Numbered from the stretch's first letter, positions 3,029 through 50,006 are shown. The stretch is 64,000 nucleotides of DNA from Candidatus Altiarchaeota archaeon (GCA_043800705.1 JAZDMS010000010.1:96001-160000); one strand, 5' to 3'. The notes: generated by a model not told the origin, from the sequence alone. Made by a program: numbers and translations.

Positions 3029-3036
3029 AAGCAAAC

Positions 3037-3735: not shown

Positions 3736-3787
3736 CAGAGAATCATCTGAATCATCGAATAAATATCTATCCGGTACAATACCTACC

Positions 3788-5172: not shown

Positions 5173-5175
5173 AGC

Positions 5176-5490
5176 ATGATAAAGAAACCAAAACAGACGG
5201 GCATCCTGGAATTCCTCGCCTCGAAGAAATGGATGCTCCTTGTGCTCACCGAGCTGCACTTCCACGGCACGCAGAGGTTCAGCGAGCTTCTTGAAAACCT
5301 CCGCAACGTCAGCCCGAAGATACTGTCCAAGCGCCTGAAGGAGCTTGAGGAGAGGGGGCTGATAACGAGGCAGCGGTTCAACGAGATCCCCCCCCGCGTC
5401 GAATACACGCTGACCCAGAAGGGCGGCGAGCTGGTCAAGTCATTCAAGGACGTCGGCAAATGGGCGCTCGAATGGGAAAGCGGGCCCTAA
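5176..5490 (+). CDS. HxlR-family winged-helix transcriptional regulator
   Basis: KWMLLVL, RFSEL, VSPKILSKRLKELEERGLITR, PPRVEYTLTQKG. Confidence 0.93.
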   Translation: MIKKPKQTGILEFLASKKWMLLVLTELHFHGTQRFSELLENLRNVSPKILSKRLKELEERGLITRQRFNEIPPRVEYTLTQKGGELVKSFKDVGKWALEWESGP

Positions 5491-22720: not shown

Positions 22721-23755
22721 TTAAATATTCACTAGATTAGCATAGTCGTGGTGTATCAACTGGTCAGTCTCTCCTAATGGAAACAGCTTCACGACCGGCT
22801 CGTCGCTGAGGAGGCAGTTCTTCTTGTAGACCTCCATGAGGCTGTCGTGGCTCTTCTTGAAGCTCGAATAGTCGGGGTATACTGATAACATCACCGACTC
22901 CAGGTCCCCGGACACCTTCAGCACATGGGCCGGGTCTTCGAGGACCGAATCCGTATGCTTCAGCCTGTCCTGGATGCCATGGTGCGGGCTTATATGCAGG
23001 TGCGTGAACGCCAACAGCCCGAAACCCAATTTCCCCACATCCGGGATGTTGACAGGCCTCAGAAGCCTCCCGTCCAGGAACTTGTTCCTCAAACCGTTCA
23101 CCGTCTGCCTGCTGACCCCCGCCGCATCCGCCACAACCTCATCCGAGGCCGAAGGATGCCCCACCAAAGCCGCAAAGACCTTCAGCTCCCTGCTGGTCGG
23201 CTTCCACTCATCCCCCTCCCTTGCTTTAGCCTTCTCGGCCGTGTGCTCGAGGCCCAGATGATTCGCCAGAAGAGGCGCATAGTCGAAGAACCTGGGGATG
23301 TTCGTAAGGCTCAGCGGGAAGAAGACATAGTTGTGCCTCTTGTCCGTCAGGTATCCGCTGTCGTGGTGGACCTTATGGTGGGCTCCGATGCTCTCCCTCA
23401 CCTTCGTCAGATTCTCGGCCGCACCGAAGCTCAGATGTTGGCCGCCGCAGCGCACCATATAGAACGCATTAGAGACGCCGTCCCTGACGACCTTCCTGAA
23501 CGCCGCCAGATCATGCGAAGCCGCCCCCCCGAACTCCCCATACAAGGCCGTAAAAAGCTCACAGCCGACGCGGCCGAAATCCGGGACGAGGACGTGGTGT
23601 ACGAGGCCGTTCTTCTCCAGCCGCTGCCTGACGACGGTCACCGTAGTACGCACAACACCCAGCCTATCGGACAACTCGACATCGTTCAAACCCGGCCACC
23701 GAACCAGGCCATACAGGACCTCCCGCTCACGGGAAGTCAAATCCCCCGAACCCAC
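22721..23755 (-). CDS. Transcriptional regulator with two tandem Lrp/AsnC-like HTH modules
   Basis: LTSREREVLYGLV...VELSDRLGVVRTTVTVVRQRLEKNGLV...PDFGRVG and PTSRELKVFAALV...VADAAGVSRQTVNGLRNKF...PDVGKLG; GTG start assumed. Confidence 0.75.
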   Translation of the reverse strand: MGSGDLTSREREVLYGLVRWPGLNDVELSDRLGVVRTTVTVVRQRLEKNGLVHHVLVPDFGRVGCELFTALYGEFGGAASHDLAAFRKVVRDGVSNAFYMVRCGGQHLSFGAAENLTKVRESIGAHHKVHHDSGYLTDKRHNYVFFPLSLTNIPRFFDYAPLLANHLGLEHTAEKAKAREGDEWKPTSRELKVFAALVGHPSASDEVVADAAGVSRQTVNGLRNKFLDGRLLRPVNIPDVGKLGFGLLAFTHLHISPHHGIQDRLKHTDSVLEDPAHVLKVSGDLESVMLSVYPDYSSFKKSHDSLMEVYKKNCLLSDEPVVKLFPLGETDQLIHHDYANLVNI

Positions 23756-23810
23756 AAAGACATAATTACAAACAGAGATATAAAAAGGGGACAAAAAGAC
23801 AAAAAAGCCG
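23613..23810. repeat. Direct repeat, copy 1 (5' end and upstream region of the double-HTH regulator)
   Basis: 87 bp identical core at 23685-23771 matches 27972-28058; diverged similarity on both flanks. Confidence 0.9.
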
Positions 23811-23863
23811 AATAGCGGAAAACCATCCGCTTCTGACAGAGGGAGCCACCGCCCCCGTATGTA

Positions 23864-23905
23864 TTTAAATATGCATTCACTAAATGAATTATTCACTTGG
23901 TGAAT
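23864..23905 (+). promoter_or_regulatory. TATA box plus two tandem ATTCA-N5-TGAAT palindromic boxes
   Basis: TTTAAATA at 23864-23871; boxes at 23875-23889 and 23891-23905 directly before the ATPase ATG. Confidence 0.6.
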
Positions 23906-23907
23906 GT

Positions 23908-25281
23908 ATGATGTTCATCGGCCGGGAAAGCGAGCTGAAGCAGCTTGGAGAACTGGAGCACTTATCAAAGAAGAAGCATTTCATTGTCGTCCTGTACGGC
24001 TTGAGAAGAGTGGGGAAGACGAGGCTTTTGCTCGAATTCGTGAAAAATCGGGGTTCATACTTTTTCGTGAACAAGAACAAGACTTCGGCGGATCTACTGA
24101 ACGAGTTCCAGAACATTCTGAAGGATGACAAAACCCTCAGCGAATTGGAGGATCTACGCACATGGGATGATTTTTTCAAGGTTATAATGGCGCGTAAAAC
24201 CACCCCCGTCATTTTCGACGAATTCCAAAACTTCGCCTACGTCGAGCCCGCAGTATTCGGAATAGTGCAAAAGAACGCCGACCTGCACGAAGACCGCCCC
24301 GGCATGATGCTCTTGTCAGGCTCGCTCATCGGCCTGATGAAAAAGCTCTTCCGGGACTCTGGAGAGCCGCTATACGGAAGAATCAAGAAGGGGCTGAAAA
24401 TCGATCCATTGAACCTGGCATCCTGTCTGGAGTTCGGGACGGAACTGGACATATCCAAAGAAGACGCCGCCAAACTATACTGCGTATTCGGAGGCTACCC
24501 AAAATATTATGTCGCCGTGGAGGATTTCGGCCTGAACGGCAGGAGTGCCGATGAAATAATCGACTCGCTGCTATTATCCGCCGACGCCCCACTCGAGGAC
24601 GAAGTCAACATCATACTCTCTCAGGAGTTCGGCGGCAGAAGCGGCGTATACTACTCCATCCTGGAGGCGATAGCCAGCGGCAACAACACCCTATCCTCCA
24701 TCGCCGGCTACCTTAATGCGACGCCAACATCGCTGACCCGCCAAATCAAGGAACTGAAGGACTACTTCGAACTGATAGAACTAGAAATGCCATACGAAGG
24801 AAAACGCGGCATCTACAGGATAAAACACCCCCTCATATATTTCTGGTTCTCGCAGATATACAAGAACTACTCCGAATACGTCTCCAGACGGCCGAAGCTC
24901 ATGGATAAGCTAAGACGCAACCTTGACGGAGCATACGGGCACATGTTCGAGAGAACTGCAAGCGAATTCCTTGCCTACAAAATCGGATTGACAGAGGCGA
25001 GACGACAGTGGGGGAAGATACCCGGCGCCAAAAAAGGCGAAAACACCTACGAAATAGACCTAATCGGAAGAAGCGGAGAAACAACATACCTATTTGAGTT
25101 CAAATGGGCTGAAGTAGGCTTCGGCGAAGCAAAGCGGATAATACAAAAACTACAGCAGAACTCAAAACACATCCCCTCCCTGAAAGGGGAAATAAAATAC
25201 GGAATCGTCGCCAAAAAAATACTGCAAAAAAACACACTACAAGCAGCCGGCCACGCAGCATACGACATACGCGACTTCTGA
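23908..25281 (+). CDS. Archaeal AAA-type ATPase (ATPase_2 / wHTH / DUF234, C-terminal PD-(D/E)xK-like domain)
   Basis: FIGRESEL, YGLRRVGKT Walker A, IFDEFQ Walker B, PLYGR, GGYPKY, EIDL...FEFKW. Confidence 0.9.
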   Translation: MMFIGRESELKQLGELEHLSKKKHFIVVLYGLRRVGKTRLLLEFVKNRGSYFFVNKNKTSADLLNEFQNILKDDKTLSELEDLRTWDDFFKVIMARKTTPVIFDEFQNFAYVEPAVFGIVQKNADLHEDRPGMMLLSGSLIGLMKKLFRDSGEPLYGRIKKGLKIDPLNLASCLEFGTELDISKEDAAKLYCVFGGYPKYYVAVEDFGLNGRSADEIIDSLLLSADAPLEDEVNIILSQEFGGRSGVYYSILEAIASGNNTLSSIAGYLNATPTSLTRQIKELKDYFELIELEMPYEGKRGIYRIKHPLIYFWFSQIYKNYSEYVSRRPKLMDKLRRNLDGAYGHMFERTASEFLAYKIGLTEARRQWGKIPGAKKGENTYEIDLIGRSGETTYLFEFKWAEVGFGEAKRIIQKLQQNSKHIPSLKGEIKYGIVAKKILQKNTLQAAGHAAYDIRDF

Positions 25282-25313
25282 AAAAACTTTTCCGAACCAT
25301 ATGTATCTCGTTA

Positions 25314-26762
25314 TCACAGTTTTTTATTTGCCTCCGCTACGCTGAAGTGTTCTGGGTCGTATTCTTCCCCAAGCCATTCCACGATGCTCTCCTCGTATTG
25401 GGGGTGGTTCCTGTTTTTCCGGATCTCCATGAGTTCTATATATCCCCAGACGCTGCCGCAGTCCTCCGGCGGACAGGCCCTCTCCCCTGCAATGCAGACT
25501 GGGGACTTCTGGGGGCCTTTTTCCATGATTTTTTCGACAGACAGGGTGTGCTGCCAGTTGTCGCCGAAATCGTATGTGTAGCTGAATTTTTGCCCCGCTT
25601 CCCGAATCAGCTCATTCAGCCTCTTCTTCGGAGAGGCTGCCTTACTCCCTCCCTGAAAGGCTTTGAACATTCCGTCAACGCATAGGATCTCTTCCTCCCC
25701 TTCGATGTACGTGCCGTCAACCTGGAAACTGTAGAGATGGTAATTATCCCAGCCCATCACTGCCTGGATGACTTCGTGAAGCCTCTTGAAGGAGATAGAG
25801 TCTTCGACTATGAACCTCCGCCAAACAGGCGGTTTCAGGCCGTCAAGCATGATCTTCAGCTGAAGCATTCTCGGCTTCGCGACGGCATCTGTCGATATTT
25901 TTCCGCAACACTTTTTGTATTTGACTCCCGACCCGCAGGGACACGGATCGTTTCGGCCCACCTTCGGCGGCTTCTTAGTAGCTGGCAGGGGCTTCAAGAG
26001 GTCTATTTTCCTCTTAGGCGGACCCGAATAGCTTTGATTTACTCCGTCCAGGTACTGCAGACTCTGATGCGAAAAATGCCCCCAAAGATCTTTCGTGCAG
26101 TGAGTGTATGCTTTGAGCCTGCTTGTGCCAGCATGGAGTTCCATCAGATCCTCCCTCGTCAACATCCTTTTCGCCTCATTGCTGCACTTGTGGAACGTCC
26201 TCAATCCGTCGAAAAGCTCCTCCTCCTGCACTTCCGCCATTTCAGGAATGCATAGTGCCACTAACTCTTCATCTTTTTCAGCCGCCAAGAACCGCTTGCA
26301 TTCTGCCGCGACATCCTCTTCCGTCTTTTTCCCCGTTGCCGCAAATGCACACAGCGCCGACATAGCAGCCGACCTCACGAACATATCAAGAGACGTGTCA
26401 AACGCCATCGCCTTAATTTTATCAAAGAAATCCGGCCCAAAATTATATAACACGGCTTGGAGGTCCTCTGTGATATAGTCGCCCAACTCCTCCACACGGT
26501 TCCGAACAGCATACTCTAACGTCTCAAAAGATTTTCCGCCGCCCTTCAACCCCAGGATGAAAAAAACATGATACGGGCTCCAAGCATCACCCGGCCATCC
26601 ATGATCCCAGTAACGATCTTCGCGCATAATCTCCGACAATGCCGCATGGACATCCCCCCTTTTTACTATCTCCTCCACGAGGCCTTTTTCCACATAGAGG
26701 CCGGATTCCACGAACTTCTCCATCAGCTCATCCGCTGGGCCGATTTTGGCGCGCTTCGTCAT
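25314..26762 (-). CDS. Fusion protein: helical (DUF1186-like) domain + SEC-C motif + plasmid pRiA4b ORF-3 domain
   Basis: [21 protein letters not shown]; [42 protein letters not shown]; start trimmed to MTKRAK (ATGA overlap). Confidence 0.82.
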
Positions 26763-27406
26763 TTCCTCCGCCCCATTATTTCTTTGATTATTTTTATGTC
26801 GTGTTTTTTCTGTTCCGGCGTTCCATGCCTGACAATGAAATCCAGGTGTTTTTCCCAGTCTCCGGAGAACAGTGCCTCGTTCACCAGCCTTATCCCCCCC
26901 TCCAGCGTGTTCGGATCCCCCCTGAAACATCTTATCCGTTCCTCATCTACTCTGAGGCCTTCCTTCTTAAGCAGATGCTCGACTGCCTCTTCGCGGGCCC
27001 CGTCGACCGTTTTCCGGGCGCGTCTGACACTCTCCGGACCTGCTGCGTAGAGCATGAAGTCCAAGGCCGCCAACGCGCCCTGATAGTAGGCCTCCTCAGC
27101 CAGCTCCTTCTTGCTCATAGTCCTAAGTATCTCCTTGGGGGGCTTGTCGCCGGGGTAGACCTCATTCCTAATGTAGTCCGCCAAATATTCCGCCTCCGGC
27201 CGGCATTCCAAGATTTTGCGCTCTTCCCTAGAGCGCGCCCTTATCTCATCCTCGCCTTCGAATCCGTCGGCCATGACGGAGGTGCAGCACTCGCATATGT
27301 GCTTTCCGGCCTTAAGCATGGATTCCGGGCATTCCATATCCTCTCCGCATATCGAGCATTGACTGGTTTTCATCTCCTCTACCTTAACATCTCGCATATC
27401 CGACAT
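26759..27406 (-). CDS. Hypothetical protein with N-terminal zinc finger
   Basis: CSIC...CECC; translationally coupled to the downstream fusion gene. Confidence 0.65.
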
Positions 27407-28042: not shown

Positions 28043-28092
28043 AAAGACATAATTACAAGCACAGATATAAAAAAGAGACAAAAATACAAAAT
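27903..28092. repeat. Direct repeat, copy 2
   Basis: Identical 87 bp core at 27972-28058. Confidence 0.9.
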
Positions 28093-28769
28093 TAGCCTTC
28101 TGAGGTTGTGTTAATGATCATTCGTTTGGCTGCGTTAAATAACGGGACAGTGTCGCAGATATCTAATCTGGAGCATAAATCGAGGTCATCAATCTGATTC
28201 AGTCTACTAAGACGTCTCGCGCCATCACCTCCGAGAATCCTTTCCCTCACACCGTCCCACTCAGGTCTTTCCCCCCTCAAAAGGCGCTTCAAATATTTAG
28301 CGCATTCCTCATCCTCGACAGCCTTCTTTTTACCTTCGTTCCCCAAGGCGACAAGAGACACATTATCTGGATTTTCAGCCTTAAGATGTTCGACTAATGC
28401 AGTGGCATTTGCAAAACTCCCAATCAGGATTCTGTCAGCATTCTTCGCGTTGACTAATCCCTGCGCCCCAGCAGATGATGTGAAGACTACACTTCTCCCG
28501 GTCAGAGTCAACTTAGATATGGAAGCCGGCGAATTATTGTAGTCGAAACCATCAGGAACCAAACCCATTCGCTCCCCCACAAGCAAATAATCTGGATTCG
28601 CCCTCTTCAAATCATGCGCCTCATCAAGGCCTCCTGCCACGATGATGGACTCAACTCCAACGCCGATACATGTGATAATGGTATTACTCGCCCTGAAGAC
28701 GTCTATGATGACTGCAGTACCCGTAGCGGCCCTGGCGCCTCTGAGGCAGCTTCTCACGGAAACTTCCAT
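28092..28769 (-). CDS. comB: 2-phosphosulfolactate phosphatase (ComB) family protein
   Basis: AVIIDVFRAS, GERMG...GFDYNNSP, FTSSAG, GSFANA, EDEECA. Confidence 0.85.
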   Translation of the reverse strand: MEVSVRSCLRGARAATGTAVIIDVFRASNTIITCIGVGVESIIVAGGLDEAHDLKRANPDYLLVGERMGLVPDGFDYNNSPASISKLTLTGRSVVFTSSAGAQGLVNAKNADRILIGSFANATALVEHLKAENPDNVSLVALGNEGKKKAVEDEECAKYLKRLLRGERPEWDGVRERILGGDGARRLSRLNQIDDLDLCSRLDICDTVPLFNAAKRMIINTTSEG

Positions 28770-28792
28770 GACATAAAATTATGATGCCTGTC

Positions 28793-29764
28793 CTATTTAT
28801 GTCTGCCGCTAAATTTTTCCTTGAGCTCTTTCCTTGTGTTCCTCAGTATAGTCTCCCCTTTTTTTGACTTCAGATTCGTCCCTAACAGGCATTCCCTTAA
28901 AAAAGTCTCTTTGGCCCGTTTGCCTATGTCTGGCGAATTAATGTATACTCCACCGACTATCTCATCGCTGTTGTCCCGGATATACATGAATACGTCTATC
29001 CCCTGGTGGCCCTCATGACAAACCATCTGTAGACCCGGCTGGGGATTGAGGTAGATTATGTCAAGATTCTTCGATCTCGCAAGGAACATGACATTGTCTA
29101 AGACCATCTCACACTCTTTGTAAGCCCAAACGGGGTCATGGTAACACCTGAGCGCATGGCGGTAGAGGTATTCAACGTCAAGCATAGTTATGTATGTCAC
29201 CTTAAGTTCCTTCTTCACGATACACCTGTCATAAATCGTCCTGAAGGGGCCTCCCCTATCAACGCTCTCTAGAAGCCGGGGGGTATAAAGGATGTTCGCG
29301 AATTTCCCCGCAGCATATACTGCGTTGGACCTTTTGGCGCAGAAACCGATTTTCTCGAAGAATGGCGTATGGTCCAGGTATTCGACAGTGGGTTTGAAGT
29401 AGTTAATCTTGGTCCTATTGAAATAATCCTCAAGGTCTCCTGTAAGCCTGTCAAAATCAGCCATGGTTTTCTTCAACTCCTCCTTCGAAGAGTGTAAAAT
29501 CCCACTTACTCCCTCAAAATCAACAACATAAGCCCCAAATCCGCTCTGCGTGATACAGCCCCCTCTCTTCAAGGATCTAAGGATATTAAACAGGTTCGGT
29601 TTCATTAGATACTTCCCAGTCAACTTCCGATATTCCCCCTGTATGGCCTTAGGGGAGGCCTGTATATTCTCGGATTGTAGGCGGAATATGCACTGCATGA
29701 TGTCGTACTGCTGCGGTGTCAGTCCGAGCCACTCAGGCACCCTAGCATCAAGAGAATCTTCCAT
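28793..29764 (-). CDS. wHTH (TrmB-like architecture) regulator paralogue A
   Basis: LGLTPQQYDI...ASPKAI...KPNLFNILRSL wHTH, coiled linker, KPTVEYL, FMYIRD..IVGGVYINSP. Confidence 0.65.
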   Translation of the reverse strand: MEDSLDARVPEWLGLTPQQYDIMQCIFRLQSENIQASPKAIQGEYRKLTGKYLMKPNLFNILRSLKRGGCITQSGFGAYVVDFEGVSGILHSSKEELKKTMADFDRLTGDLEDYFNRTKINYFKPTVEYLDHTPFFEKIGFCAKRSNAVYAAGKFANILYTPRLLESVDRGGPFRTIYDRCIVKKELKVTYITMLDVEYLYRHALRCYHDPVWAYKECEMVLDNVMFLARSKNLDIIYLNPQPGLQMVCHEGHQGIDVFMYIRDNSDEIVGGVYINSPDIGKRAKETFLRECLLGTNLKSKKGETILRNTRKELKEKFSGRHK

Positions 29765-30710
29765 ATTTCCCCTTCAACTTCATCCTTACATTTCGTATTA
29801 TGTTCTCGCCCTTTTTGGTTTTAAGGTTTATACCGCTTTCACATTCCCTGAGGAACATCTCCTTGGCTCTTTTCCCAACGTCCGGGGAGCCTATGTGTAC
29901 TCCGCCGATGATATCCTCTCTGTTGTCTCTGATGTAAAGAAACACATCTATTGGCTGGATTTTCTCCGGGAGGACAAGATCTAAACCGAAAAGCCTTTCA
30001 GTATATACTATATCCACATTGTCCATTTTCCTAAGTTCGCACAGATTTTCTATCGTCTTCTGGCATTCGAGATATGCTAAACCGGGATTCTTGTATGTTT
30101 GTAAGGCCTGGTGATAGAGGTAATCTATGTCCAAGTTGGTAAGGTATTTGGCTTTTAGTCTTTTCTTGAAACAGCCGTCGTATATGGCTTTAACGTATTC
30201 CGCTCTTCCGATTCCGGCAAGCATTGTCGGGGTATATGAAATTTTTGCGAATTTTCCGACAACATAGTGGACCTTTGCGACCCTGACTAGTTGGGCAAGT
30301 TTATGGTAAAACTGGTCATATTCCAGATATTCGACAACTGGTTTAAACTGACTTACTTTTATCCTCGAAAAATACGCATCCACCTCGTCGACAACCTTCT
30401 CAAATTCAGAAATCTCCCTATATCTCTCCTCTTTTTTCTGCCTTAACGTCTTTTCTACAAAATCAAAATCGACCTCGTAGCATGCATACTCCGTTTGTTT
30501 AATGTGTCCCTTGTTTTTCAGTAATCTAAGAACGTTAAAGAGGTTCGGTTTCATAAGATGCTTCCCCCTAAGTTTTCTATACTCCTCTTGTATCGCCTTG
30601 GGTGCGGCAACTATTCCCCTCTCATGAATCTGATAAACGCATTGTAGAATATCGAATTGCTGGGGTGTAAGCCCTAATCCCTCTGAAACCATCTTTAAAT
30701 CAAATTCCAC
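29748..30710 (-). CDS. wHTH (TrmB-like architecture) regulator paralogue B
   Basis: LGLTPQQFDI...KPNLFNVLRLL, KPVVEYL, FLYIRD..IIGGVHIGSP; GTG start with GGGTGG RBS. Confidence 0.65.
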   Translation of the reverse strand: MEFDLKMVSEGLGLTPQQFDILQCVYQIHERGIVAAPKAIQEEYRKLRGKHLMKPNLFNVLRLLKNKGHIKQTEYACYEVDFDFVEKTLRQKKEERYREISEFEKVVDEVDAYFSRIKVSQFKPVVEYLEYDQFYHKLAQLVRVAKVHYVVGKFAKISYTPTMLAGIGRAEYVKAIYDGCFKKRLKAKYLTNLDIDYLYHQALQTYKNPGLAYLECQKTIENLCELRKMDNVDIVYTERLFGLDLVLPEKIQPIDVFLYIRDNREDIIGGVHIGSPDVGKRAKEMFLRECESGINLKTKKGENIIRNVRMKLKGKYGRFS

Positions 30711-30762
30711 CAGACCACCCTATACAATAGCGGGTAACCTAGATTAAAAAGAAACTGTAACG

Positions 30763-30778
30763 ACTGTAATACTACAGT
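30763..30778. promoter_or_regulatory. Palindromic candidate operator upstream of paralogue B
   Basis: ACTGTA-ATAC-TACAGT within three TGTAA repeats, just upstream of a minus-strand TTTTTAAT TATA-like box. Confidence 0.5.
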
Positions 30779-30836
30779 GTAATACTCTTCATTCAGGACA
30801 TTCGTCTGATTTCTTATGGTTGCCACCGATAATTTT

Positions 30837-31809
30837 TTACGTTTTCCGTTTTAGTTGTTGTCGAATCTTTTTATAGATTTTTCTCCCTGTGCTGTCGTTT
30901 TTTAGCAGTTGGGCATGTTTACAAACTTCATTAAACCTGTCGAGGGCATTCTTAGTTGCCTCCGGAGATCGAATGTATATTCCCCCAATATGTACCTGAT
31001 TCTCGTCACGAACGAAAATAAACATCTCTTCGGGTTCATCCTTTACTGGTATAATGACGTCCAAACCGAATGGATTACTGTAATAAAAAATATTTAGTAA
31101 TTCATTTTCAGAAATCTGTCTTTCAAGATTGTTGATTATTTTTTCACACTCAGTCTCAATCGTTTTTTTGTCATTAAACGTCAACCGTACATATTCCCAA
31201 AGGATATTTATTTATTGATAACGGGGAGAGATAAGTTATCCTCAACTCCTTTTTATTAAAGCACTGATTTTTTATGATGTCAAGGTACTCTCCTCTTTGT
31301 ATGCCTTTAGTTGAGACCTCTTCCGTATAAGAAATACCTGGAAAACCCGCCACTATGTAATACTCTCTAATCTCCTTCAACCTTGGGTTAACCATGTCCC
31401 AGAAAGCTTTCCTGTCACGGATATACTCAACATATGGCTTAGTATTTTTAATGGAACCTTTTTGGAAGAATTCCTCTATCTTAGATGATATTCCCTCAAA
31501 ATTCTTCATTTCGATTTCAAAATCCTTTTTTCTGGATTGGATTATTTCCCTTATTGCACTCATATTGACTATGTATGTGCCCTTTCCAAGTTTGCTTACT
31601 ATCTGCAGTTCGACCAATGTTTTAAGTATCCCGAATAAATTGGGTGGTTTGATCCTTTTTCCGTATCTTTTAGAATATTCCTCTAATACCGCCTTCGGTT
31701 TAGTCTCTTTTCCCCTTATTTCTAGCTCATGCAAAGAAATCAAAATCTCAAACTCTTGAATAGTTATCCCCAACCATCTATTGAACCTTTCAAAATCATC
31801 TGGTTCCAT
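30837..31809 (-). pseudogene. wHTH (TrmB-like) regulator paralogue C, split by a +1 frameshift near 31175-31187
   Basis: ORF 31174-31809 (LGITIQEFEI, PPNLFGILKTL, KPYVEYI) and ORF 30837-31184 (FIFVRD..IGGIYIRSP) together align with the full-length paralogues. Confidence 0.75.
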
Positions 31810-31880
31810 AATATACTAAGTATAATAGATACTATATCCTGATATACATATATTTATACTAATGTTGATAGATTTATTAT

Positions 31881-32081
31881 ATGTCTCTTTCAGGTAGATC
31901 GTTAATCTCTCCCCTTGATTGCGGGAGTAATTACTTCTTAAAACTTTCTGAAAGAAGTAATACCTTGACTATTCCAGGCTCTATCATTAAACAGAATGCT
32001 ATCAAGGACAAGGATATAGTACTCTTTATTCAACAAAATGGCAAATTCATTGTCCAGATTCATCGGGGCGATAAAACATGA
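31881..32081 (+). CDS. Small AbrB/MazE-like protein
   Basis: SNTLTIPGSIIKQNAIKDKDIVLF...GKFIV pattern. Confidence 0.5.
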   Translation: MSLSGRSLISPLDCGSNYFLKLSERSNTLTIPGSIIKQNAIKDKDIVLFIQQNGKFIVQIHRGDKT

Positions 32082-32200
32082 TAATTGGGGCTGCCTGCGT
32101 ACGACTGAATAGGAAAGGTCAGGGAATAATTGAAATTCCGAAACTGGTCTACTATACGATACTTAGCAAAGCTGAATACTCCCTTGAATTAGTGTCGTAA
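32078..32200 (+). CDS. 40-aa AbrB-like fragment
   Basis: Manual translation MIIGAACVRLNRKGQGIIEIPKLVYYTILSKAEYSLELVS; ATGA overlap with previous ORF. Confidence 0.35.
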   Translation: MIIGAACVRLNRKGQGIIEIPKLVYYTILSKAEYSLELVS

Positions 32201-32214
32201 ACGGAAAAAATAAA

Positions 32215-32835
32215 ATGGACGTGACTAAAGCAATAAAAAAACGTAGGAGTATCAGAAAATACTCCCCCAAAGCTGTCCCTCTACACAAGATAATGGAAAT
32301 CCTAGATGCGGCAAGACTGGCACCATCTGGATGTAACGTACAACCTACTCGCTTCATCCTAATCCGGTCTGCCAGGATGAAAGAGAAATTAAAAAAGAAA
32401 AAAGTTTTCCCCCAGGACTGGGTATATACCGCTCCATTGATAATAGTGTACTGCGGGAATCCAAAAGATTACGGAAACTTTGAAGGCGCAAAATATCAGC
32501 AAGAAGACGGTACATTACCTACGGATATTACTAAAGTTTACCCTTATTTTAGTGATCCGGAAGAACGAACACTAAAAGATCTTTCTATATCCTCAGCATT
32601 CACTATGTTACGAGCTGTTGAATTAGGCCTTGGAACTTGTTATATAGGGTTAGTCGATCGGGTAAAAATAAAAACCATATTGAAAATTCCAAAGAACTTT
32701 ATTATTCCTTTTGCCTTAACGATAGGTTTTCCTGCTGAAAAGCCACATCAAAGAGATAGAAAATCGCTGAAAAAACTCATTTTAAAGATAAAAAATAATG
32801 GTCGTAGCCTTAACTATTCCTCATCCAGCAAATAG
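32215..32835 (+). CDS. Nitroreductase family protein
   Basis: IKKRRSIRKY, ARLAPSGCNVQP, AVELGLGTCYIG. Confidence 0.92.
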   Translation: MDVTKAIKKRRSIRKYSPKAVPLHKIMEILDAARLAPSGCNVQPTRFILIRSARMKEKLKKKKVFPQDWVYTAPLIIVYCGNPKDYGNFEGAKYQQEDGTLPTDITKVYPYFSDPEERTLKDLSISSAFTMLRAVELGLGTCYIGLVDRVKIKTILKIPKNFIIPFALTIGFPAEKPHQRDRKSLKKLILKIKNNGRSLNYSSSSK

Positions 32836-33859
32836 GGTCTGATATATTGTGGTCTCCTGCTATTAATGAGGCAGCAGCCCTGCAACCCCAGCAAAATGTA
32901 TTCTTTTCGCATTTGCTGCAATGTCCTTTAATTTTTTTTGGCTCATGGAGTTCCTTACATAACAGTGTGTCGCTGTTTTCTTCGAATAGTTCTTTGAATC
33001 GTCTCTTATGAACGCTACCGACATATGTCGGTAGCACCATCGAACACGACATTACATCGCCATGATAATTTATCACACATTTAGTTCCGCAGTAAAATTT
33101 TGTACCGAATCCCGGGCCGCTAAGGATTCCATCCTTAGAGTTCCGGTACATGTACACTTCCCTCATCTCATCAAATGTTGGTGAGAGCCTGTCTGTCTTC
33201 TTTGCCAGGCCAAATGCCCGATAGGGGTAGAGTATGACCGAAATCCCTTTTTCATCATATGCCCAGTCGATCGTTTCCTTATAGTCAGCATCCTCTATTA
33301 ATGGTTTTGTAACCGTGATTGCCAACGCAACATTATCTGGACAGAAGCCGCTATCCAAGAGGTTCTCTAATCCAAGGATCTGTTTTTCAAGGTATTCCAG
33401 ACGGCTATAATGCGTTTTTTTAAACACTTTCTCGCTTAATGTGTCTATGTGAATATGTGCCAGGTCAACAATTTCGTTGACATTTTCTAGATTTTTTTTA
33501 TTTACTAATGGTGCACCATTTGTCATAAGAAGATTGGATAGTCCTTTCTCCTTTGCATAGGCCATTATCTCAAACCAGTTACTTCTTGTTAGAGGTTCTC
33601 CACCCCCCCAGTTTATCTGTCTAGCTCCTAAATCAGATATGTCATCGACTATTTCATGGAGTTTAATATCATCTATTTTTTTTACATTTTCAGGAACTGA
33701 TTCTGCGTAACAGTAACTACACCCACCGTCACAGAAAGACGTTAATCCCACCTCTACCGTATAAAGCCTGCACTCGTCGAAGAATTTTATCTGTTCCTCT
33801 ATGTCGTTCGTGAACCCTTTTCTGACTTTATTTTTACAATTTATGAAATTTTCCATCAT
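32810..33859 (-). CDS. Radical SAM protein with SPASM domain
   Basis: CDGGCSYC, WGGGEPL, MTNG; SPASM cysteines CGTKC, GDVMSC, CSKC...CWGCRA...DPIC. Confidence 0.92.
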   Translation of the reverse strand: MMENFINCKNKVRKGFTNDIEEQIKFFDECRLYTVEVGLTSFCDGGCSYCYAESVPENVKKIDDIKLHEIVDDISDLGARQINWGGGEPLTRSNWFEIMAYAKEKGLSNLLMTNGAPLVNKKNLENVNEIVDLAHIHIDTLSEKVFKKTHYSRLEYLEKQILGLENLLDSGFCPDNVALAITVTKPLIEDADYKETIDWAYDEKGISVILYPYRAFGLAKKTDRLSPTFDEMREVYMYRNSKDGILSGPGFGTKFYCGTKCVINYHGDVMSCSMVLPTYVGSVHKRRFKELFEENSDTLLCKELHEPKKIKGHCSKCEKNTFCWGCRAAASLIAGDHNISDPICWMRNS

Positions 33860-34830
33860 TTCCCCCTCGCTTTATCCAACTCTTTTAACCTTTTTCTGAG
33901 TTCACTGAATATCCTATCCTTTTCCGGCCCTGAAATGTCGATTGCATTTTCGCAGTTTTTTTGGAATTCCTCTTTTGCCCTAATTGCGGTTGACGACGAT
34001 TTTATGTATATCCCCCCAATTGCCATTTGTTTGGAATCCCTTACAAACATGAAATAGTCTTGTAATACCTCGCCCTCTGGGAGTAGTACATCCATCCCAT
34101 ATGGGAATTCTGTATACATCACCTTCAGATTTTTATTGAGTGAGACTAGGCTTTCGAGGTTTGTGATCGCAGCATCGCATTCTTTGATCGCCATATCATG
34201 GTCATTGTGTATGCTCATGAATCTATCATAAGGATATTCGATCGAAAGGCTTGTCAGATAGTTTATTTCGAGACTTTTTTCCTTAAAGCATTTTCTTCGC
34301 ATAACCTCTAAGTATCTTTCTAACTTTAATCCATCTGAGAGCGTATATGGATAACTTATATTTGTGAATTTTGAAACTACGTAATATCTCTTAGAACGTT
34401 CGAGAAGTTTCGCGATCTTATCAAACATTTCATTATATTCAAGGTATTCTACCATGGGTTTTTCGGGATTAGCTGTCGTCTTCTTGAAGTATTCTTCCAG
34501 TTCGCCTGACAGTTGTTCATAGTGTGTTATCTTCTGTTGGTATTCGGTCTTTCTTTGGTCTAGTGTTTTTTTGAGGCCTTCTAGGTTCAGTTTGTAGTTG
34601 GCCTCGCCTTCTCGCGTCAGGAAGTCTTTGTCTTGGAGTATCTTCATCTGTCTGAAGAGGTTGCTTTTTTGGATTCCTCCCCCGAAATCCTTTGCGTAGG
34701 TCAGTTCGATCTCTTTCGGGGAGGCGGCCTTGTTCTTCGAGGATAGCTTATAGACCGTCTTCAGAAGGTTCAGCTGCTGGTCAGTTATGCCGAGGATGCC
34801 TGGAGCATCTATGTCCTCGATTTTAGCCAT
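33856..34830 (-). CDS. wHTH (TrmB-like architecture) regulator paralogue D
   Basis: LGITDQQLNL...ASPKEI...KSNLFRQMKIL, KPMVEYL, FMFVRD..IGGIYIKS. Confidence 0.65.
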   Translation of the reverse strand: MAKIEDIDAPGILGITDQQLNLLKTVYKLSSKNKAASPKEIELTYAKDFGGGIQKSNLFRQMKILQDKDFLTREGEANYKLNLEGLKKTLDQRKTEYQQKITHYEQLSGELEEYFKKTTANPEKPMVEYLEYNEMFDKIAKLLERSKRYYVVSKFTNISYPYTLSDGLKLERYLEVMRRKCFKEKSLEINYLTSLSIEYPYDRFMSIHNDHDMAIKECDAAITNLESLVSLNKNLKVMYTEFPYGMDVLLPEGEVLQDYFMFVRDSKQMAIGGIYIKSSSTAIRAKEEFQKNCENAIDISGPEKDRIFSELRKRLKELDKARGK

Positions 34831-34881
34831 CTACTCAGTCCCCCTACTATCTGATAGGAACAAACCTTTAAATATTAATGG

Positions 34882-34907
34882 GTGTACGAGTGTAAACACT
34901 AGTACAC
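34882..34907. promoter_or_regulatory. 26-bp palindrome upstream of paralogue D
   Basis: GTGTACgAGTGT-aa-ACACTaGTACAC (11 of 12 arm positions pair), next to a TTTAAA TATA-like element. Confidence 0.55.
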
Positions 34908-34965
34908 TACATTATGATAGTACTTTTTAAATAAATCTGACAAGAAGATAACCAAAGTAAGTAAA

Positions 34966-34982
34966 TTTGACATAATGTCAAA
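34966..34982. promoter_or_regulatory. Perfect palindrome, candidate operator
   Basis: TTTGACAT-A-ATGTCAAA directly before the ATG at 34985. Confidence 0.5.
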
Positions 34983-34984
34983 AA

Positions 34985-35113
34985 ATGGGGTGTATGGGGA
35001 TGGATTTGTCTGCGTTTTTGGGGTTTGTGGTGTTCGGGGAATTGTTGACGTTTTTTTGGATGCTGGAAGTGGCCGATAAGCGCATTACCTGCCATCCTTA
35101 TGGGGTGCTCTGA
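34985..35113 (+). CDS. Small hydrophobic protein (42 aa)
   Basis: Manual translation MGCMGMDLSAFLGFVVFGELLTFFWMLEVADKRITCHPYGVL; TGATG overlap with next ORF. Confidence 0.35.
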   Translation: MGCMGMDLSAFLGFVVFGELLTFFWMLEVADKRITCHPYGVL

Positions 35114-35337
35114 TGTCTGCATACTTTGATCTTTCCAGGTGGGGTCTGTTCGCCGGATTCACTTCCATGATCGATAGGTTGGCCGAGGATGAGGCCGTCG
35201 ATTACGAGTTCGACCCTGCGGAGGCCGACTTCGTCGTGGTCTCGGAGCTGAAGGGTTGCGACCCTGCGGCGGAGACTGCGAAGCTGCGGGGCCATATAGT
35301 CGTCTCTTTGGAGGGCGAGGATGCCGAAGAGGGGTGA
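35113..35337 (+). CDS. Small acidic hypothetical protein
   Basis: 74-aa ORF in an apparent operon. Confidence 0.45.
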   Translation: MSAYFDLSRWGLFAGFTSMIDRLAEDEAVDYEFDPAEADFVVVSELKGCDPAAETAKLRGHIVVSLEGEDAEEG

Positions 35338-35563
35338 GGGGGGTGTGGGGGTCATCCTCCATCACCTTGTCGGTGAGGTCTGCTGTGTCACGAAGACCAT
35401 CAAGGCCAGGCAGGCGGGTTTAGTCCGCATTTGGGGGAAGGATTTCGAGGCAACGGGGGAGACGAAGATCCCGAGGGGCCGGTGGGTCCGGGTCATCGCT
35501 CATAGCGACGAAAATCTGGAAGTCGTCCCGTTGAACGTGTGGCTCGGCAGCTGCTGCTGCTGA
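35321..35563 (+). CDS. NfeD-like C-terminal OB-fold protein
   Basis: LVGEVCCVTKTI...GLVRIWGKDFEA...IPRGRWVRVI...NLEVVP. Confidence 0.6.
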   Translation: MPKRGEGGVGVILHHLVGEVCCVTKTIKARQAGLVRIWGKDFEATGETKIPRGRWVRVIAHSDENLEVVPLNVWLGSCCC

Positions 35564-35604
35564 GGTTTTTTCATATTTATAGTCTCTTCGGTTACCTATT
35601 TATC

Positions 35605-35820
35605 ATGGCAATGGACTACAACGTCATCATCGAGGAGGGAACCGACGGTTATCTGATATCGGAGGTCATAGAGCTGCCTGGGTGCCATACGCAGGCGAAA
35701 AACTTGGACGAGCTTATGAAGAGGACCAAGGAAGCGATTTCATTATACCTAAAATGCTCAAAGGGCGTCAAGGCTGAAGGAAGGTTCATCGGCGTACAGA
35801 AGGTAACAGTCGGTGCCTAG
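35605..35820 (+). CDS. hicB: HicB-family antitoxin
   Basis: YNVIIEEGTDGY...ELPGCHTQAKNLDELM..TKEAISLYL. Confidence 0.9.
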   Translation: MAMDYNVIIEEGTDGYLISEVIELPGCHTQAKNLDELMKRTKEAISLYLKCSKGVKAEGRFIGVQKVTVGA

Positions 35821-36047
35821 ATGGCGAAGCTGCCCATGCTCTCTGCAAGAGAAATGCCAAAATCCTGAAATCGATGGGATTCGCCTTCGTCCGCCAGGAA
35901 GGAAGCCATATGTTCTTCCGGCATATGGATGGCAGGACAACGGTTGTCCCGAATCACCGGGGAGAAGACCTTGATAGGGGATTGCTGAGCAAGATTATAA
36001 AGAAAGACCTGAAGATGGAAGTCGAAGAGTTCTTGAAATGCAAATAA
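35821..36047 (+). pseudogene. hicA: HicA-family toxin with a 1-nt deletion near 35856
   Basis: MAKLPMLSAREM, then in a shifted frame KILKSMGFAFVRQEGSHMFFRHMDGRTTVVPNHRGEDLDRGLLSKII; absent from the ORF track. Confidence 0.85.
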
Positions 36048-44480: not shown

Positions 44481-44576
44481 CGGATGATGTGCACCACCAA
44501 TGCGATGGATAACTTGAACCGCAGACTGCGAAAAGTCACGAAGACGAAGGGCGTGTTTCCAAGTGAGCAGGAGCCC
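44481..44576 (+). mobile_element. IS256-family transposase remnant
   Basis: Manual translation RMMCTTNAMDNLNRRLRKVTKTKGVFPSEQEP matches the IS256 C-terminal motif YTTNxxExxNxxxRKxTKxxGxFP. Confidence 0.75.
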
Positions 44577-46074
44577 TTTCGTCGGATGCCTTCGTCGACT
44601 TCGGGTTCTCATAGAGAAACACACCCGCCCTGATAAAACTCTTGTTTTCGATGAGCTTCAATTCGGCGCCAAAACGAGATATGACCGTTTTATCTGGTAT
44701 TCTGTGGGCATAGATTAGCCATACGTATCGTGGGTTCTTGTCTGCTATCGCCTTGCTGAGCTTTTGCATGTCCTCCCCGCAGGACTTCACATCCACCCTC
44801 TTTTGTGAGCCCCTCTTCTGGAAGTAATGGTCGAAATAGAACTTATCCCAAGAGCAGCCTACCACAAACGAGTCACCGTATACGGCGTCTCTATCAGCTA
44901 GGTAATAAGCGGCTTCGCGGAATTGCGCCTTTATCGGCCGGCTGTAGTAAGCTTGGTCGGATATGAGGTTGAAGAGGAATGCGGTTACCACAATAATCGC
45001 AACGATTGCCTGGGATGTGTTGCTTATCGGCAGTTTCGTTATTGCGCGAGCTAGCAGCAGGTATGCGGCTGGTAGTATGATGATAAGGTTGCCATAATGG
45101 CTAAGAGATGGGTTCTCCAATCTGGACTTCAAATAGACTTGGGAAAATGGTATGATAAGCCATAGGATGACCAGCATATCCGGTGACATGAGTAGCTTTC
45201 GCACATTAAGGTGTGCTTTCGACTTGTATGCTCCGTATATTATGCGGGAGATAAGAAGGAGGTACAATGCCGACACCAGAAGCCATAGATCCGGTGACTT
45301 GTTGAAGAAAATCTGAAGGAAGATTTCAAGTCTTAATTTCTCAAGGGGCGTTGAATAGATTCTCTCAGCATTCAGGTCCGCCATGAACATGGGGATCCAT
45401 GGTATGAACAGGATGATGATCGCAGAGTAGATGAGCAGAATCCTCAGCAGGGCTTTTCGCCGCATAAGAAAAAAAATCACAGTACACGCTCCCTGCGATG
45501 AAACCAGGATGCCTCCGTAATAGTGGGTATACCCTGATGCGGCGGCTGCCAGAATGTACCCGACCGCTTCTGGCATCCGGATCTTGGAGTCTGCATCAAG
45601 GCTCTTCAGAATCGGCAGCCAAAGATACGTCGTCAGTATGCTTAAAAGGAGCAGGATAGAATAAGACCTTGCCTCCTGGCTATAATATACTGGGAACCAC
45701 AGGAACGCCACCAACGCGGACGCTATGAGTCCTTCCCTGTGCGAGAAAAGACGAGACCCCAGAAGGAATATGGCCGGTATCGACAGGATGCCGGCAATTG
45801 CCGAGGGAAGCCTTAAAGCAGCCTCAGAGTCGCCGATGAATTTCAGGGCAAAGTGCATGAATAACACGTAACCTGGCGGATGGTATGTGTTTCGGACTGA
45901 CCCGATTACCTGGGATAACGTCCGGGGGCTGCTTTCATACAAGGTCCCGAGCTCGTCGTTCGAAAGCGACTGAGTCTCAAGGCCGTAAAGCCTTAAAACC
46001 GCTCCGAGGACGGTTATTAAAATTAGAAGCGCCAAGACGTTTTTTGGGTAAGCCCCCATCTTATCTTCCCCCAT
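44536..46074 (-). CDS. GT-C fold glycosyltransferase (GT39 / ArnT-like)
   Basis: LRLYGL..QSLSNDE, HPPGY, LRLPSA, YYSQEARSY, YTHYYG. Confidence 0.9.
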   Translation of the reverse strand: MGEDKMGAYPKNVLALLILITVLGAVLRLYGLETQSLSNDELGTLYESSPRTLSQVIGSVRNTYHPPGYVLFMHFALKFIGDSEAALRLPSAIAGILSIPAIFLLGSRLFSHREGLIASALVAFLWFPVYYSQEARSYSILLLLSILTTYLWLPILKSLDADSKIRMPEAVGYILAAAASGYTHYYGGILVSSQGACTVIFFLMRRKALLRILLIYSAIIILFIPWIPMFMADLNAERIYSTPLEKLRLEIFLQIFFNKSPDLWLLVSALYLLLISRIIYGAYKSKAHLNVRKLLMSPDMLVILWLIIPFSQVYLKSRLENPSLSHYGNLIIILPAAYLLLARAITKLPISNTSQAIVAIIVVTAFLFNLISDQAYYSRPIKAQFREAAYYLADRDAVYGDSFVVGCSWDKFYFDHYFQKRGSQKRVDVKSCGEDMQKLSKAIADKNPRYVWLIYAHRIPDKTVISRFGAELKLIENKSFIRAGVFLYENPKSTKASDERAPAHLETRPSSS

Positions 46075-46083
46075 TCCGTTGGA

Positions 46084-46209
46084 TCATATCCTGGCTATCT
46101 TCTGCAGATGGATGCGTATTTTCCTAAGCTCACTCAGGAATAGGATACCCACGATAAGCAGAAGGACTTGGCTCAGCATCACAGCGTCCGCAGTCGACAT
46201 ATCCCACAT
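46084..46209 (-). CDS. 41-aa single-TM microprotein
   Basis: Manual translation MWDMSTADAVMLSQVLLLIVGILFLSELRKIRIHLQKIARI; ends 9 nt before the GT39 start. Confidence 0.45.
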   Translation of the reverse strand: MWDMSTADAVMLSQVLLLIVGILFLSELRKIRIHLQKIARI

Positions 46210-46413
46210 GGGATAGATCTCTGAATGATGGTTTAAATAGTTAACGTTGACATGGACGTCCACCTCCCGTGCAGAGGCTGACCCAAGCGCAACTGCAAAC
46301 GGATTATGTTCGACTCCAGAAAGAGGCTATGAGGATGCATCGGCGGGAAGCGGATTTTTTTAGGGGAGCTGACTTTCTGAAGAGGATGCGGAATACCCGC
46401 GGCTGCTACAGGT

Positions 46414-47175
46414 TCATAGCAGCCTCAATGCCCTTTGGAATACCGATAGGCCAATACGCGACGACACGAGAAGAAATATTCTATTCATGCCAGAGATATT
46501 TAAACACGTGTGATTTTCTATAATCCACCTGTCAAAGAAATTATTCATCGCAATCATGTGATCCCTTGAAAAACCAGTTTCGGCATAATTTCTGGGTTTA
46601 GAGACCACAACTTCGTTCACCTGCAAACCGTGCTTTCTGGCTTCGAGAATCATCTCCAAGTCGATTTCAAAACCCTCTTCTTTGAGCCTTACTTTACTGA
46701 GGTACTCTCTCGTCATGGCTCTGAAGCCGCAATTTGTGTCTGATAGCCGGTATCCTGTCGCGGCTTTCATGAAAAAACACGTGAAGTTATTCATTATTTC
46801 GCGGCTTTTAGACCTCGCCCACTTGTTTTTTTTGAACCGTGTACCGACTACTAAGTCCGCACTTCCATTTTTTAGTTCACTCAAGAACCGCGGGACATCT
46901 TTCGGATCATGTTCTTCATCCCCGTCCAATGTGACCACTAGCTCTGCGCCGTCTTGTAGCGCTTTCTCCAAACCTTTTCTAACGGAATAGCCCTTTCCCT
47001 TGTTTTCAGCGTTTAATAGGACGATTGCACCCCCTTTTCTGGCGTTTTCTGCCGTGTTATCGCATGAGCCGTCGTCTACGACTATAACCTCGTCAACATA
47101 GTTCTTAGTCTCCCTTGCGATGTTGAGGATGGTGTTTTCTTCATTGACAACGGGGATGACTGCAACAGTCTTCAT
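46414..47175 (-). CDS. Glycosyltransferase family 2 (DPM/DPG synthase-like)
   Basis: VIPVVNEE, VVDDGSCDNT, NKGKG, TLDGDEEHDP, DTNCGFRA. Confidence 0.9.
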   Translation of the reverse strand: MKTVAVIPVVNEENTILNIARETKNYVDEVIVVDDGSCDNTAENARKGGAIVLLNAENKGKGYSVRKGLEKALQDGAELVVTLDGDEEHDPKDVPRFLSELKNGSADLVVGTRFKKNKWARSKSREIMNNFTCFFMKAATGYRLSDTNCGFRAMTREYLSKVRLKEEGFEIDLEMILEARKHGLQVNEVVVSKPRNYAETGFSRDHMIAMNNFFDRWIIENHTCLNISGMNRIFLLVSSRIGLSVFQRALRLL

Positions 47176-47176
47176 C

Positions 47177-48565: not shown

Positions 48566-48624
48566 GAAGATATGGCGTCATTAATAATAAAAGAAAATCA
48601 CTTAATCTACATAGTGGAACTAGG

Positions 48625-49989: not shown

Positions 49990-50006
49990 CATACTCTCAT
50001 AGGCCC

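Follow-up and report, generated by a model that had tools for sequence, protein, structure and literature searches.

Between positions 28,092 and 34,910 of a 64,000-nucleotide stretch of DNA from a Candidatus Altiarchaeota archaeon (GCA_043800705.1, JAZDMS010000010.1:96001-160000; that entire stretch is referred to below as the window), an AT-rich island contains four paralogous genes that are interspersed with genes for a radical-SAM enzyme, a nitroreductase and a ComB-like phosphatase. Modelling of one of the encoded proteins indicates that the four genes most likely belong to a divergent branch of the TrmB superfamily that has no name and shares the architecture of TrmBL2. We hold with moderate confidence that the paralogues are dimeric, sequence-specific regulators of the TrmB type, each dedicated to its own short operon, and that a catalytically dead PLD-like domain serves as their sensor. 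The island is most likely a set of local gene switches rather than a system of a new kind. Neither the superfamily nor its architecture is new; the novelty lies in a branch of that superfamily for which no database model exists, in the expansion of that branch and the clustering of its members on an island, and in the strict association of one of its clades with an orphan SPASM radical-SAM enzyme.

In the mechanism that we propose, the paralogue that adjoins the radical-SAM gene (paralogue 4) would bind one or more unique dyads located just upstream of its own TATA box, and would thereby set its own expression together with that of the SPASM radical-SAM enzyme to which it is translationally coupled, while paralogues 3, 2 and 1 would act likewise on the array closed by the ComB-like gene. 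A ligand-sensing or oligomerisation role would fall to the PLD-like domain; the ligand of the regulator is likely to be the substrate or the product of the radical-SAM enzyme, and the neighbouring enzymes may be the source of the effector. The analyses below establish the fold, the range of the family, the linkage of its genes, the conserved dyads at the promoter, the composition and the discordant tree; that the proteins bind DNA, dimerise, regulate themselves and respond to a ligand is inferred.

Structure, sequence and range of the paralogue family

The AlphaFold2 model of paralogue 4, built from a 12-sequence alignment with a predicted local distance difference test score (pLDDT) of 87.6, consists of a winged helix-turn-helix (wHTH; approximately residues 17-81), a 38-residue helix (83-120) and a PLD-like alpha/beta domain (126-323). 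A Foldseek search with that model returned TrmBL2 first (E 1.7e-9), followed by PLD-fold proteins and TrmB. When an aligner independent of Foldseek was run against 48,161 PDB representatives, the only full-length matches among those listed were TrmBL2 (Z 12.1, 241 aligned residues) and TrmB (Z 10.2, 218 aligned residues), every other listed match spanning a single domain; a second structural comparison gave TrmBL2 a Z of 12.9 over 242 aligned residues. In the ESM Atlas, neighbours by structure belonged to clusters that carry either PF01978 TrmB together with DUF7436 (PF24217) or FilR1, the nearest clusters for residues 122-301 and 100-313 being those of TrmB + DUF7436 and FilR1-type archaeal regulators. 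A reading made earlier from the sequence alone (the sequence-only reading) had assigned to these proteins the TrmB layout of wHTH, coiled coil and effector domain, and had proposed a Foldseek examination of the C-terminal domain; the layout was borne out by the model and by both kinds of structural search, and the C-terminal domain proved to be a degenerate PLD-like domain.

In TrmB the long helix forms the coiled coil of the dimer. The order of wHTH, long helix and PLD-like subdomain that characterises TrmB is present in the paralogue 4 model, and its C-terminal sugar-binding subdomain is not: the match is limited to residues 110-243 of the TrmB effector domain (Z 10.1-10.4, compared with 10.2 for the full chain), and a single helix follows residue 301. 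As modelled, the paralogues are thus closer to TrmBL2, which also has no sugar subdomain, than to TrmB itself. With TrmBL2 of the Thermococcales (PDB 5bqt, 5bpd, 5bpi, 5box) they share the entire sequence of wHTH, long helix and PLD-like domain, but at only 11-13% identity in structural alignments, and the paralogue is some 60 residues longer. TrmBL2 is described in PMC4158304 as a highly conserved chromatin protein and global repressor that binds coding and intergenic DNA broadly, whereas the paralogue family evolves fast, is present in several copies per genome, and has neighbours and promoter dyads that are gene-specific. With TrmB and TrmBL1 (Tgr; PDB 3qph, 2f5t) the paralogues share the wHTH, the coiled-coil helix and the PLD-like first effector subdomain, a gene located in or beside the operon that it putatively controls, and AGTA/TACT promoter words that resemble TACTN3AGTA; they differ in having no sugar subdomain, and in that their neighbours are radical-SAM, ComB-like and other genes rather than those of sugar transport.

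The paralogues are numbered by coordinate order, such that paralogue 1 lies beside the ComB-like gene and paralogue 4 beside the radical-SAM gene. The sequence-only reading had described four copies of about 320 residues with a common set of motifs. Their paralogy is real, since in the alignment paralogue 2 is 49% identical to paralogue 1, paralogue 4 is 32% identical to it, and the paralogue 3 pieces are 31% and 28% identical to it, both pieces also matching the family hidden Markov model (E 1.5e-64 and 5.5e-37); the third copy, however, is disrupted by a frameshift, so that only three copies are intact, and paralogue 3 is either a pseudogene or the product of an assembly error. All of the listed motifs are present in the alignment, but the spacing between RD and GG is six residues and not four. 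In another genome, G006 (C36:1664-2656), the first copy of the tandem array has an in-frame TAG that replaces the conserved Tyr of the YLT motif; this lesion and the frameshift in the window indicate that the first gene of the array has been disrupted in two genomes, each time differently. A fifth, diverged copy is encoded on another contig of the window's own genome (G000:C13:3583-4500), where it is flanked, within the region 1836-5941, by a gene for a UbiD-family decarboxylase and by HAD and HD phosphohydrolase genes.

The earlier description of the family as unassigned was confirmed in Pfam and NCBIfam, where no model matches the paralogues; PF01978 gave no match to the four window proteins at E <= 1, PADLOC and PHROGs held no matches, and searches of PDB sequences with 12- and 82-member profiles returned nothing relevant (best E 0.4 and 0.022, both to unrelated proteins). 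Among 82 diverse family members, weak winged-helix matches were found to MCM_C (7/82) and MarR_2 (3/82). Mean column identity across the 82 is 30%, and the best-conserved columns lie mostly in the wHTH (Q18 in 75 members, I41 in 76, N57 in 77, F59 in 74, L65 in 81 and Y79 in 80), A214 (77/82) being the sole one of them located in the C-domain. The three Cys of paralogue 4 are found in 49, 37 and 25 of the 82, including members that have no radical-SAM neighbour; the earlier proposal of Cys-based sensing therefore did not survive as a trait of the family, nor are these residues restricted to the radical-SAM-linked clades.

A word-indexed search of 5.8 billion proteins yielded nine, the query included, and a profile search run exhaustively over 1.84 billion representatives yielded 129 clusters at E <= 1e-3 (94 of them at E <= 1e-30), mostly from Altiarchaeota. 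Named records that hold relatives are metagenome-assembled genomes labelled Candidatus Altiarchaeota or Altiarchaeales, together with one Iainarchaeum and one Nanobdellati. The family was matched in 25 of 41 related genomes, with one to seven matches in each; the six matches in the window's genome correspond to five genes. No relatives were found in PLSDB plasmids by tblastn or in IMG/VR by a pattern scan, and a literature search (supplements not covered) found no published description of the family.

Neighbourhoods were surveyed up to 8-10 kb around family genes at 20 places and at the named loci, with identical loci counted once. Elsewhere, most members occur singly and next to a variety of genes, among them those for V4R/zinc-ribbon proteins, phosphoglycerate mutase, 3-hydroxy-3-methylglutaryl-CoA reductase, FIST, CBS and UbiD/HAD/HD proteins, MFS transporters, Cdc6 and a methylase. 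Such variety, together with one to seven copies per genome, is the behaviour expected of a diversifying family of transcription factors. One clade (L034, L035, L037) adjoins a zinc-ribbon + V4R protein at two loci and a cofactor-independent phosphoglycerate mutase at three, which may point to a metabolic regulon. The sequence-only reading had envisaged a single module of four sensors and three enzymes, and had named scattered singletons without recurring enzyme neighbours as the outcome that would speak against it. The whole set does not recur and most members are indeed scattered, yet two parts of it do recur: the family gene is paired with the radical-SAM gene in six of six genomes, and adjoins a ComB-like gene in three of the 11 that have one.

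The radical-SAM pair and its candidate operators

The genes and intergenic features to which the following analyses refer are, in window coordinates:

28092-28769, minus strand: ComB-like phosphatase (2-phosphosulfolactate phosphatase family, PF04029), final gene of the paralogue 3-2-1 array
28793-29764, minus strand: paralogue 1, open reading frame (ORF) of 323 aa, adjoining the ComB-like gene; ComB-linked clade
29748-30710, minus strand: paralogue 2, ORF of 320 aa, with a 17-nt overlap with the start of paralogue 1
31174-31809 (211 aa) and 30837-31184 (115 aa), minus strand: paralogue 3, in two frames, with a frameshift near 31174-31215
31810-31880, between paralogue 3 and the 66-aa ORF: divergent intergenic region of 71 nt, with TAGTAT repeats and an ATACT-T-AGTAT dyad
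31881-32081, plus strand: 66-aa ORF, AbrB/SpoVT-like by a weak MazE_antitoxin match
32078-32200, plus strand: 40-aa ORF, AbrB/SpoVT-like by reading of the sequence
32215-32835, plus strand: nitroreductase-family flavoprotein (PF00881), convergent with the radical-SAM gene
32810-33859, minus strand: radical-SAM/SPASM enzyme, 349 aa (PF04055)
33856-34830, minus strand: paralogue 4, ORF of 324 aa, adjoining the radical-SAM gene and first in the conserved pair
34865-34981, minus strand: promoter region of paralogue 4, with a TATA-like box and two dyads
22721-23896, minus strand: two-wHTH protein (TrmB/MarR type), 391 aa (PF01978 at 2.7e-8)

The radical-SAM gene matches PF04055 at 1.1e-15. Its earlier designation as a SPASM enzyme was upheld in part: PF13186 scores 17.0 bits against a cut-off of 21.5, but the seven-Cys pattern of the C-terminal region is conserved in 16 homologues (C314, C317, C323 and C344 invariant; C257, C272 and C326 in at least 90%), as are C43, C47 and C50 of the CxxxCxxC motif and the GGEPL motif, all of which are invariant. 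Another tally of the seven C-terminal Cys gives five as invariant and two at 90% or more. The closest NCBIfam equivalogs belong to the AhbD/NirJ set and fall far below their cut-offs (AhbD is the best, TIGR04545 scoring 91 bits against 500 and TIGR04051 85 against 515), and no true AhbD above the cut-off was found in the genome. The AlphaFold2 model of the enzyme (pLDDT 90.5) is closest to CteB, EpeE, PqqE, SkfB, anSME and SuiB, which are peptide or protein maturases. Identification of the enzyme as a pVip was rejected, the matches in PADLOC and PHROGs spanning only the generic radical-SAM core. A reading of the locus as one for a ribosomally synthesized and post-translationally modified peptide (RiPP) was likewise set aside: neither G016 nor G001 has a conserved precursor-like ORF beside the pair, and the 40-aa ORF recurs only in G015.

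At a threshold of at least 48% identity (the next relatives drop to 31%), orthologues of the radical-SAM gene are present in six of 61 genomes of the phylum, and in all six a family gene lies directly upstream. The same gene order is found on three of three metagenome contigs that carry a close homologue of paralogue 4; a fourth contig (L067) is rearranged, with the radical-SAM gene, an unrelated gene and a family gene followed by a relic of the radical-SAM C-terminus. The window's copy of the pair has overlapping stop (paralogue 4) and start (enzyme) codons, in the sequence ATGA. The G015 locus is split between contigs C67 and C37 (the L029/L030 ends), which abut inside the radical-SAM gene; their 4-nt overlap and the continuous reading frame indicate one locus broken by assembly, and a 358-aa ORF that separates the radical-SAM gene from the paralogues there does not belong to the family. 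In general form the pair resembles the NirJ/AhbC/AhbD-type systems, in which AhbA/B and NirDLGH are regulator-like proteins of the Lrp/AsnC type that work with NirJ, AhbC or AhbD radical-SAM enzymes: a winged-helix, transcription factor-like protein stands beside a NirJ/AhbD-like radical-SAM gene. It differs in that the paralogues are of the TrmB type, that the AhbD/NirJ matches are far below threshold, and that the window's genome has no true AhbD.

The upstream regions of paralogue 4 orthologues in four genomes, at loci that range in GC from 0.41 to 0.59, share a conserved block of about 65 nt. In the window, the start codon of paralogue 4 is preceded at about 35-48 nt by a TATA-like box (34865-34878) within this block, and directly upstream of that box is the dyad GTGTAC-N14-GTACAC (34882-34907), which in G016 is a perfect 9-bp inverted repeat and in G001 displays a paired change in its half-sites (GTGTAT...ATACAC). 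Positions 34967-34981 form a further palindrome, TTGACA-N3-TGTCAA. Each of these dyads occurs once in the 2.0-Mb genome, compared with 0-1 and 0 occurrences, respectively, in shuffled sequence. In the 71-nt region that precedes paralogue 3, which also contains TAGTAT repeats, the dyad ATACT-T-AGTAT (31813-31823) is placed 4 nt before the start codon, and the near-perfect palindrome AAGTAT-GT-ATACTT is found 60 nt before the start of the fifth copy (G000:C13). Sites of the TrmB family listed in PMC4158304 include TACTN3AGTA, TACTN7-8GAGTA and ATAATACT repeats, with activation from sites upstream of the transcription factor B recognition element and TATA box, and repression from sites downstream of them.

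Words of the AGTAT/ATACT type number 1.92 per 150-nt upstream region in 26 family genes and 0.54 in 39 AT-matched controls (p 4e-5), a p-value that overstates the significance, as do those of the related tests, because the words were discovered on the tested regions and the genomes are related; TATA hexamers display no enrichment (p 0.15). That overstatement is one of several points that weigh against the regulator reading. The TrmB pattern chosen a priori gives a weaker result (6/26 against 2/39, p 0.019), and the AGTAT/ATACT dyads, of which the genome contains 12, are not above the 4-12 found in shuffles, although two of the 12 precede family start codons, by 4 nt (paralogue 3) and 60 nt (the fifth copy). 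The block upstream of paralogue 4 could be an RNA leader, or a site for another protein such as the two-wHTH neighbour. No member of the 82 matches PF01978 or PF11495 at E <= 0.01, so that a link to TrmB at the level of sequence is missing, and the sequence support for a relation to TrmB + DUF7436 proteins is marginal: DUF7436 matches one of the 82, at E 0.002, and hhalign alignments of the family profile to two DUF7436-matching proteins (L045 and L046) agree in position but have probabilities of 8.9% and 1.1%, too low for these alignments to count toward homology. It is therefore by structure that the family is placed in the superfamily. Finally, the strict pairing with a SPASM enzyme of the peptide/protein type is also to be expected of a two-protein enzyme system.

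Three other readings of the paralogues were weighed against these observations. By analogy with the H-NS paralogues that are borne on islands or plasmids, the proteins might be architectural or silencing factors that coat and repress an AT-rich foreign block. That TrmBL2, which gives the best match in structure, acts as a chromatin protein and global repressor (PMC4158304, as above), that the chromatin immunoprecipitation peaks of T. kodakarensis TrmBL2 are enriched for AT-rich motifs according to PMC11840125, and that no 5 kb of the genome is richer in AT than the one in which the four genes sit all agree with such a function. It nevertheless appears unlikely, given a family that evolves rapidly to a mean column identity of 30%, is present in several copies with gene-specific neighbours, and has many members outside low-GC islands (for example, an L033 member of GC 0.52 in a locus of 0.44); the promoter dyads of paralogue 4, being unique in the genome, are a better fit to a dedicated operator than to coating. 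A reading as wHTH-PLD nucleases, whether restriction-like or mobile-element endonucleases, draws upon the fact that the C-domain matches PLD nucleases as well as it does TrmB (SauUSI Z 12.2, NucT 11.0, NgoAVII R 10.7, BfiI 8.5). The corresponding region of the family, however, reads (D/E)xFxFxRD-x6-GGxxIxS, with His replaced by D/E and Lys by F/Y/I at the catalytic positions of the HKD motif HxK(x)4D(x)6G(S/G)xN, no conserved His was found in the C-domain (its most His-rich column has the residue in 25/82 members), and PADLOC and PHROGs are silent. Since the catalytic His and Lys are missing, nuclease activity is excluded as a family-wide trait, and we consider this reading very improbable.

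In the remaining alternative, the radical-SAM-linked copy would be an obligate partner of the SPASM enzyme, either supplying a wHTH in place of a PqqD-like RiPP recognition element (RRE) or being itself the protein that is modified. The invariable upstream position of the family gene and the overlapping stop and start codons are as such a partnership would require, the structural neighbours of the enzyme are all peptide- or protein-modifying SPASM/twitch enzymes, the absence of a conserved precursor-peptide ORF beside the pairs of G016 and G001 is consistent with it, and the presence of only about 40 residues before CxxxCxxC indicates that the enzyme has no fused RRE of its own. If the reading were true, the locus would represent a two-protein radical-SAM system built upon a transcription-factor scaffold, with the extra paralogues as spare or alternative partners. 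We judge it to be doubtful, at a level slightly below that of DNA coating: the top 50 structural matches include no RRE, and those of the N-domain are winged helices, most of which bind DNA; the SPASM structures available in the PDB are biased toward peptide maturases; the conserved promoter dyads fit a DNA-binding role; and most family members have no radical-SAM neighbour at all. In the distant genomes G055 and G057, furthermore, the family partner is 35-38% identical to its counterpart and the enzyme 52-53%, a disparity that fits a regulator better than a co-evolving subunit.

Composition, gene content and probable lateral origin of the island

The genome (2.0 Mb in 43 contigs, 87.6% complete) has a mean GC of 0.554. 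Across 28-35 kb of the window, GC in successive 1-kb intervals is 0.46, 0.47, 0.40, 0.34, 0.38, 0.40 and 0.40, between flanks of 0.50-0.62 on both sides; positions 30001-35000 (GC 0.384) are the lowest of 1809 5-kb windows genome-wide, and 28.0-34.9 kb ranks first of 510 7-kb windows in tetranucleotide distance from the genome mean. The island noted at the outset is thus a genuine compositional feature. Its genes have a GC at third codon positions (GC3) of 0.33-0.57, compared with 0.60-0.82 for the other genes of 22.7-39.6 kb, and its tetranucleotide profile correlates with loci of a low-GC relative (r 0.91) and not with its own genome (r -0.03). The homologous module of G016 deviates from its flanks in the same manner, with gene GC of 0.36-0.42 compared with about 0.57. 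Eight more regions with 5-kb GC below 0.46 (on contigs C3, C9, C12, C18, C20, C26, C30 and C35:70-77 kb, the largest being C9:78-95 kb) are candidate foreign blocks.

The chromosomal site is a conserved one: on a single contig of the congener G001, glutamine synthetase III is followed, further along, by the paralogue 4 homologue, the radical-SAM gene and the two-wHTH gene. The identities of the window's proteins to those of G001 (same genus) and G016 (other genus) are as follows:

Glutamine synthetase III (flank): G001 78%, G016 71%
Two-wHTH protein (flank): G001 62%, G016 58%
Paralogue 4: G001 55%, G016 64%
Radical SAM: G001 54%, G016 65%

The family tree is discordant in the same sense, with the window's radical-SAM-linked copy grouped with that of G016 (support 99) and G001 with G015; constraining the two congeners together is worse by 94.5 log-likelihood units (approximately unbiased (AU) test, p 2.3e-6). 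Within the genus, the radical-SAM gene is present in two of five genomes. Paralogue 1 groups with those copies from G016 and G006 that adjoin ComB (support 99); it and paralogue 2 are members of the ComB-linked clade, and paralogue 4 of an old, separate one, a topology by which the four copies are not recent local duplicates. The GC3 and tetranucleotide profiles, the discordant tree and the patchy occurrence of the radical-SAM gene (6/61) support lateral acquisition, as the sequence-only reading had supposed, and the block is probably an accessory cassette that is exchanged among Altiarchaeota, derived from a low-GC relative, and replaced at a fixed chromosomal site. No tRNA genes were found in the window, no flanking direct repeats were found to mark an integration site, and Rfam had no match across 22-37 kb at E <= 0.1.

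The other neighbours of the paralogues are less regular in their occurrence. The ComB-like protein matches PF04029 at 1.5e-45 (155.5 bits against a cut-off of 26.4) and is encoded by the only PF04029 gene of the genome, but scores 122 bits against a cut-off of 235 for its best NCBIfam equivalog; by these scores it is a member of the PF04029 family. ComB-like genes are present in 11 of 61 genomes, and a family gene is adjacent in three (the window's genome, G016 and G006). The nitroreductase (PF00881 at 2.8e-25) has no counterpart in 26 other loci searched with tblastn, and was found only in the version of the locus carried by the window's genome. Of the two small ORFs formerly labelled AbrB-like, that of 66 aa has a sub-threshold match to MazE/SpoVT-AbrB (E 0.009, 16.4 bits against 24.7), and the label of that of 40 aa depends upon inspection of its sequence; a 46%-identical copy of the latter occupies the same position beside the radical-SAM gene in G015.

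Orthologues of the two-wHTH protein (340-390 aa, 54-62% identity) directly close the module in G001, G006 and G016 and lie at the far end of the locus in G015, and a similar protein is encoded in L067. In the window, the two-wHTH gene is separated from the ComB-like gene by a 4.2-kb insert (23884-27406; GC about 0.50) that is absent from the same place in G016 and G006, and that encodes an archaeal ATPase_2/DUF234 protein matching the candidate defence family PDC-S27 (1.1e-32), a PRiA4_ORF3 + SEC-C protein and a 215-aa ORF without a family match. On the opposite side, divergent from paralogue 4 (34985-35563), are a 42-aa membrane-like ORF and an 80-aa ORF with an NfeD-C-type OB-fold (C-terminus LNVWLGSCCC), both of which have counterparts at the same position in G016 and G001. 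Just beyond the island, at 35539-36047, lies a HicB-like + HicA-like toxin-antitoxin pair (PF15919 6e-5; PF07927 1.5e-14), and a second stretch of lower GC (0.45-0.49), at 44500-50000, contains PMT_2 and GT2 glycosyltransferase genes and two B12-binding radical-SAM genes.

Implications for Altiarchaeota

To our knowledge, the phylum Altiarchaeota is known only from metagenomes, and we know of almost no characterised transcription factors from it or from other uncultured archaea. The analyses described here tie a family of 129 clusters, for which neither Pfam nor NCBIfam has a model, structurally to TrmB and TrmBL2, and provide it with candidate operators. The island in which its members are gathered also illustrates cleanly how a cassette of foreign composition is replaced at a chromosomal site that is itself conserved. 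One clade of the family is strictly paired with an orphan SPASM radical-SAM enzyme, and that association offers a handle on the function of the enzyme.

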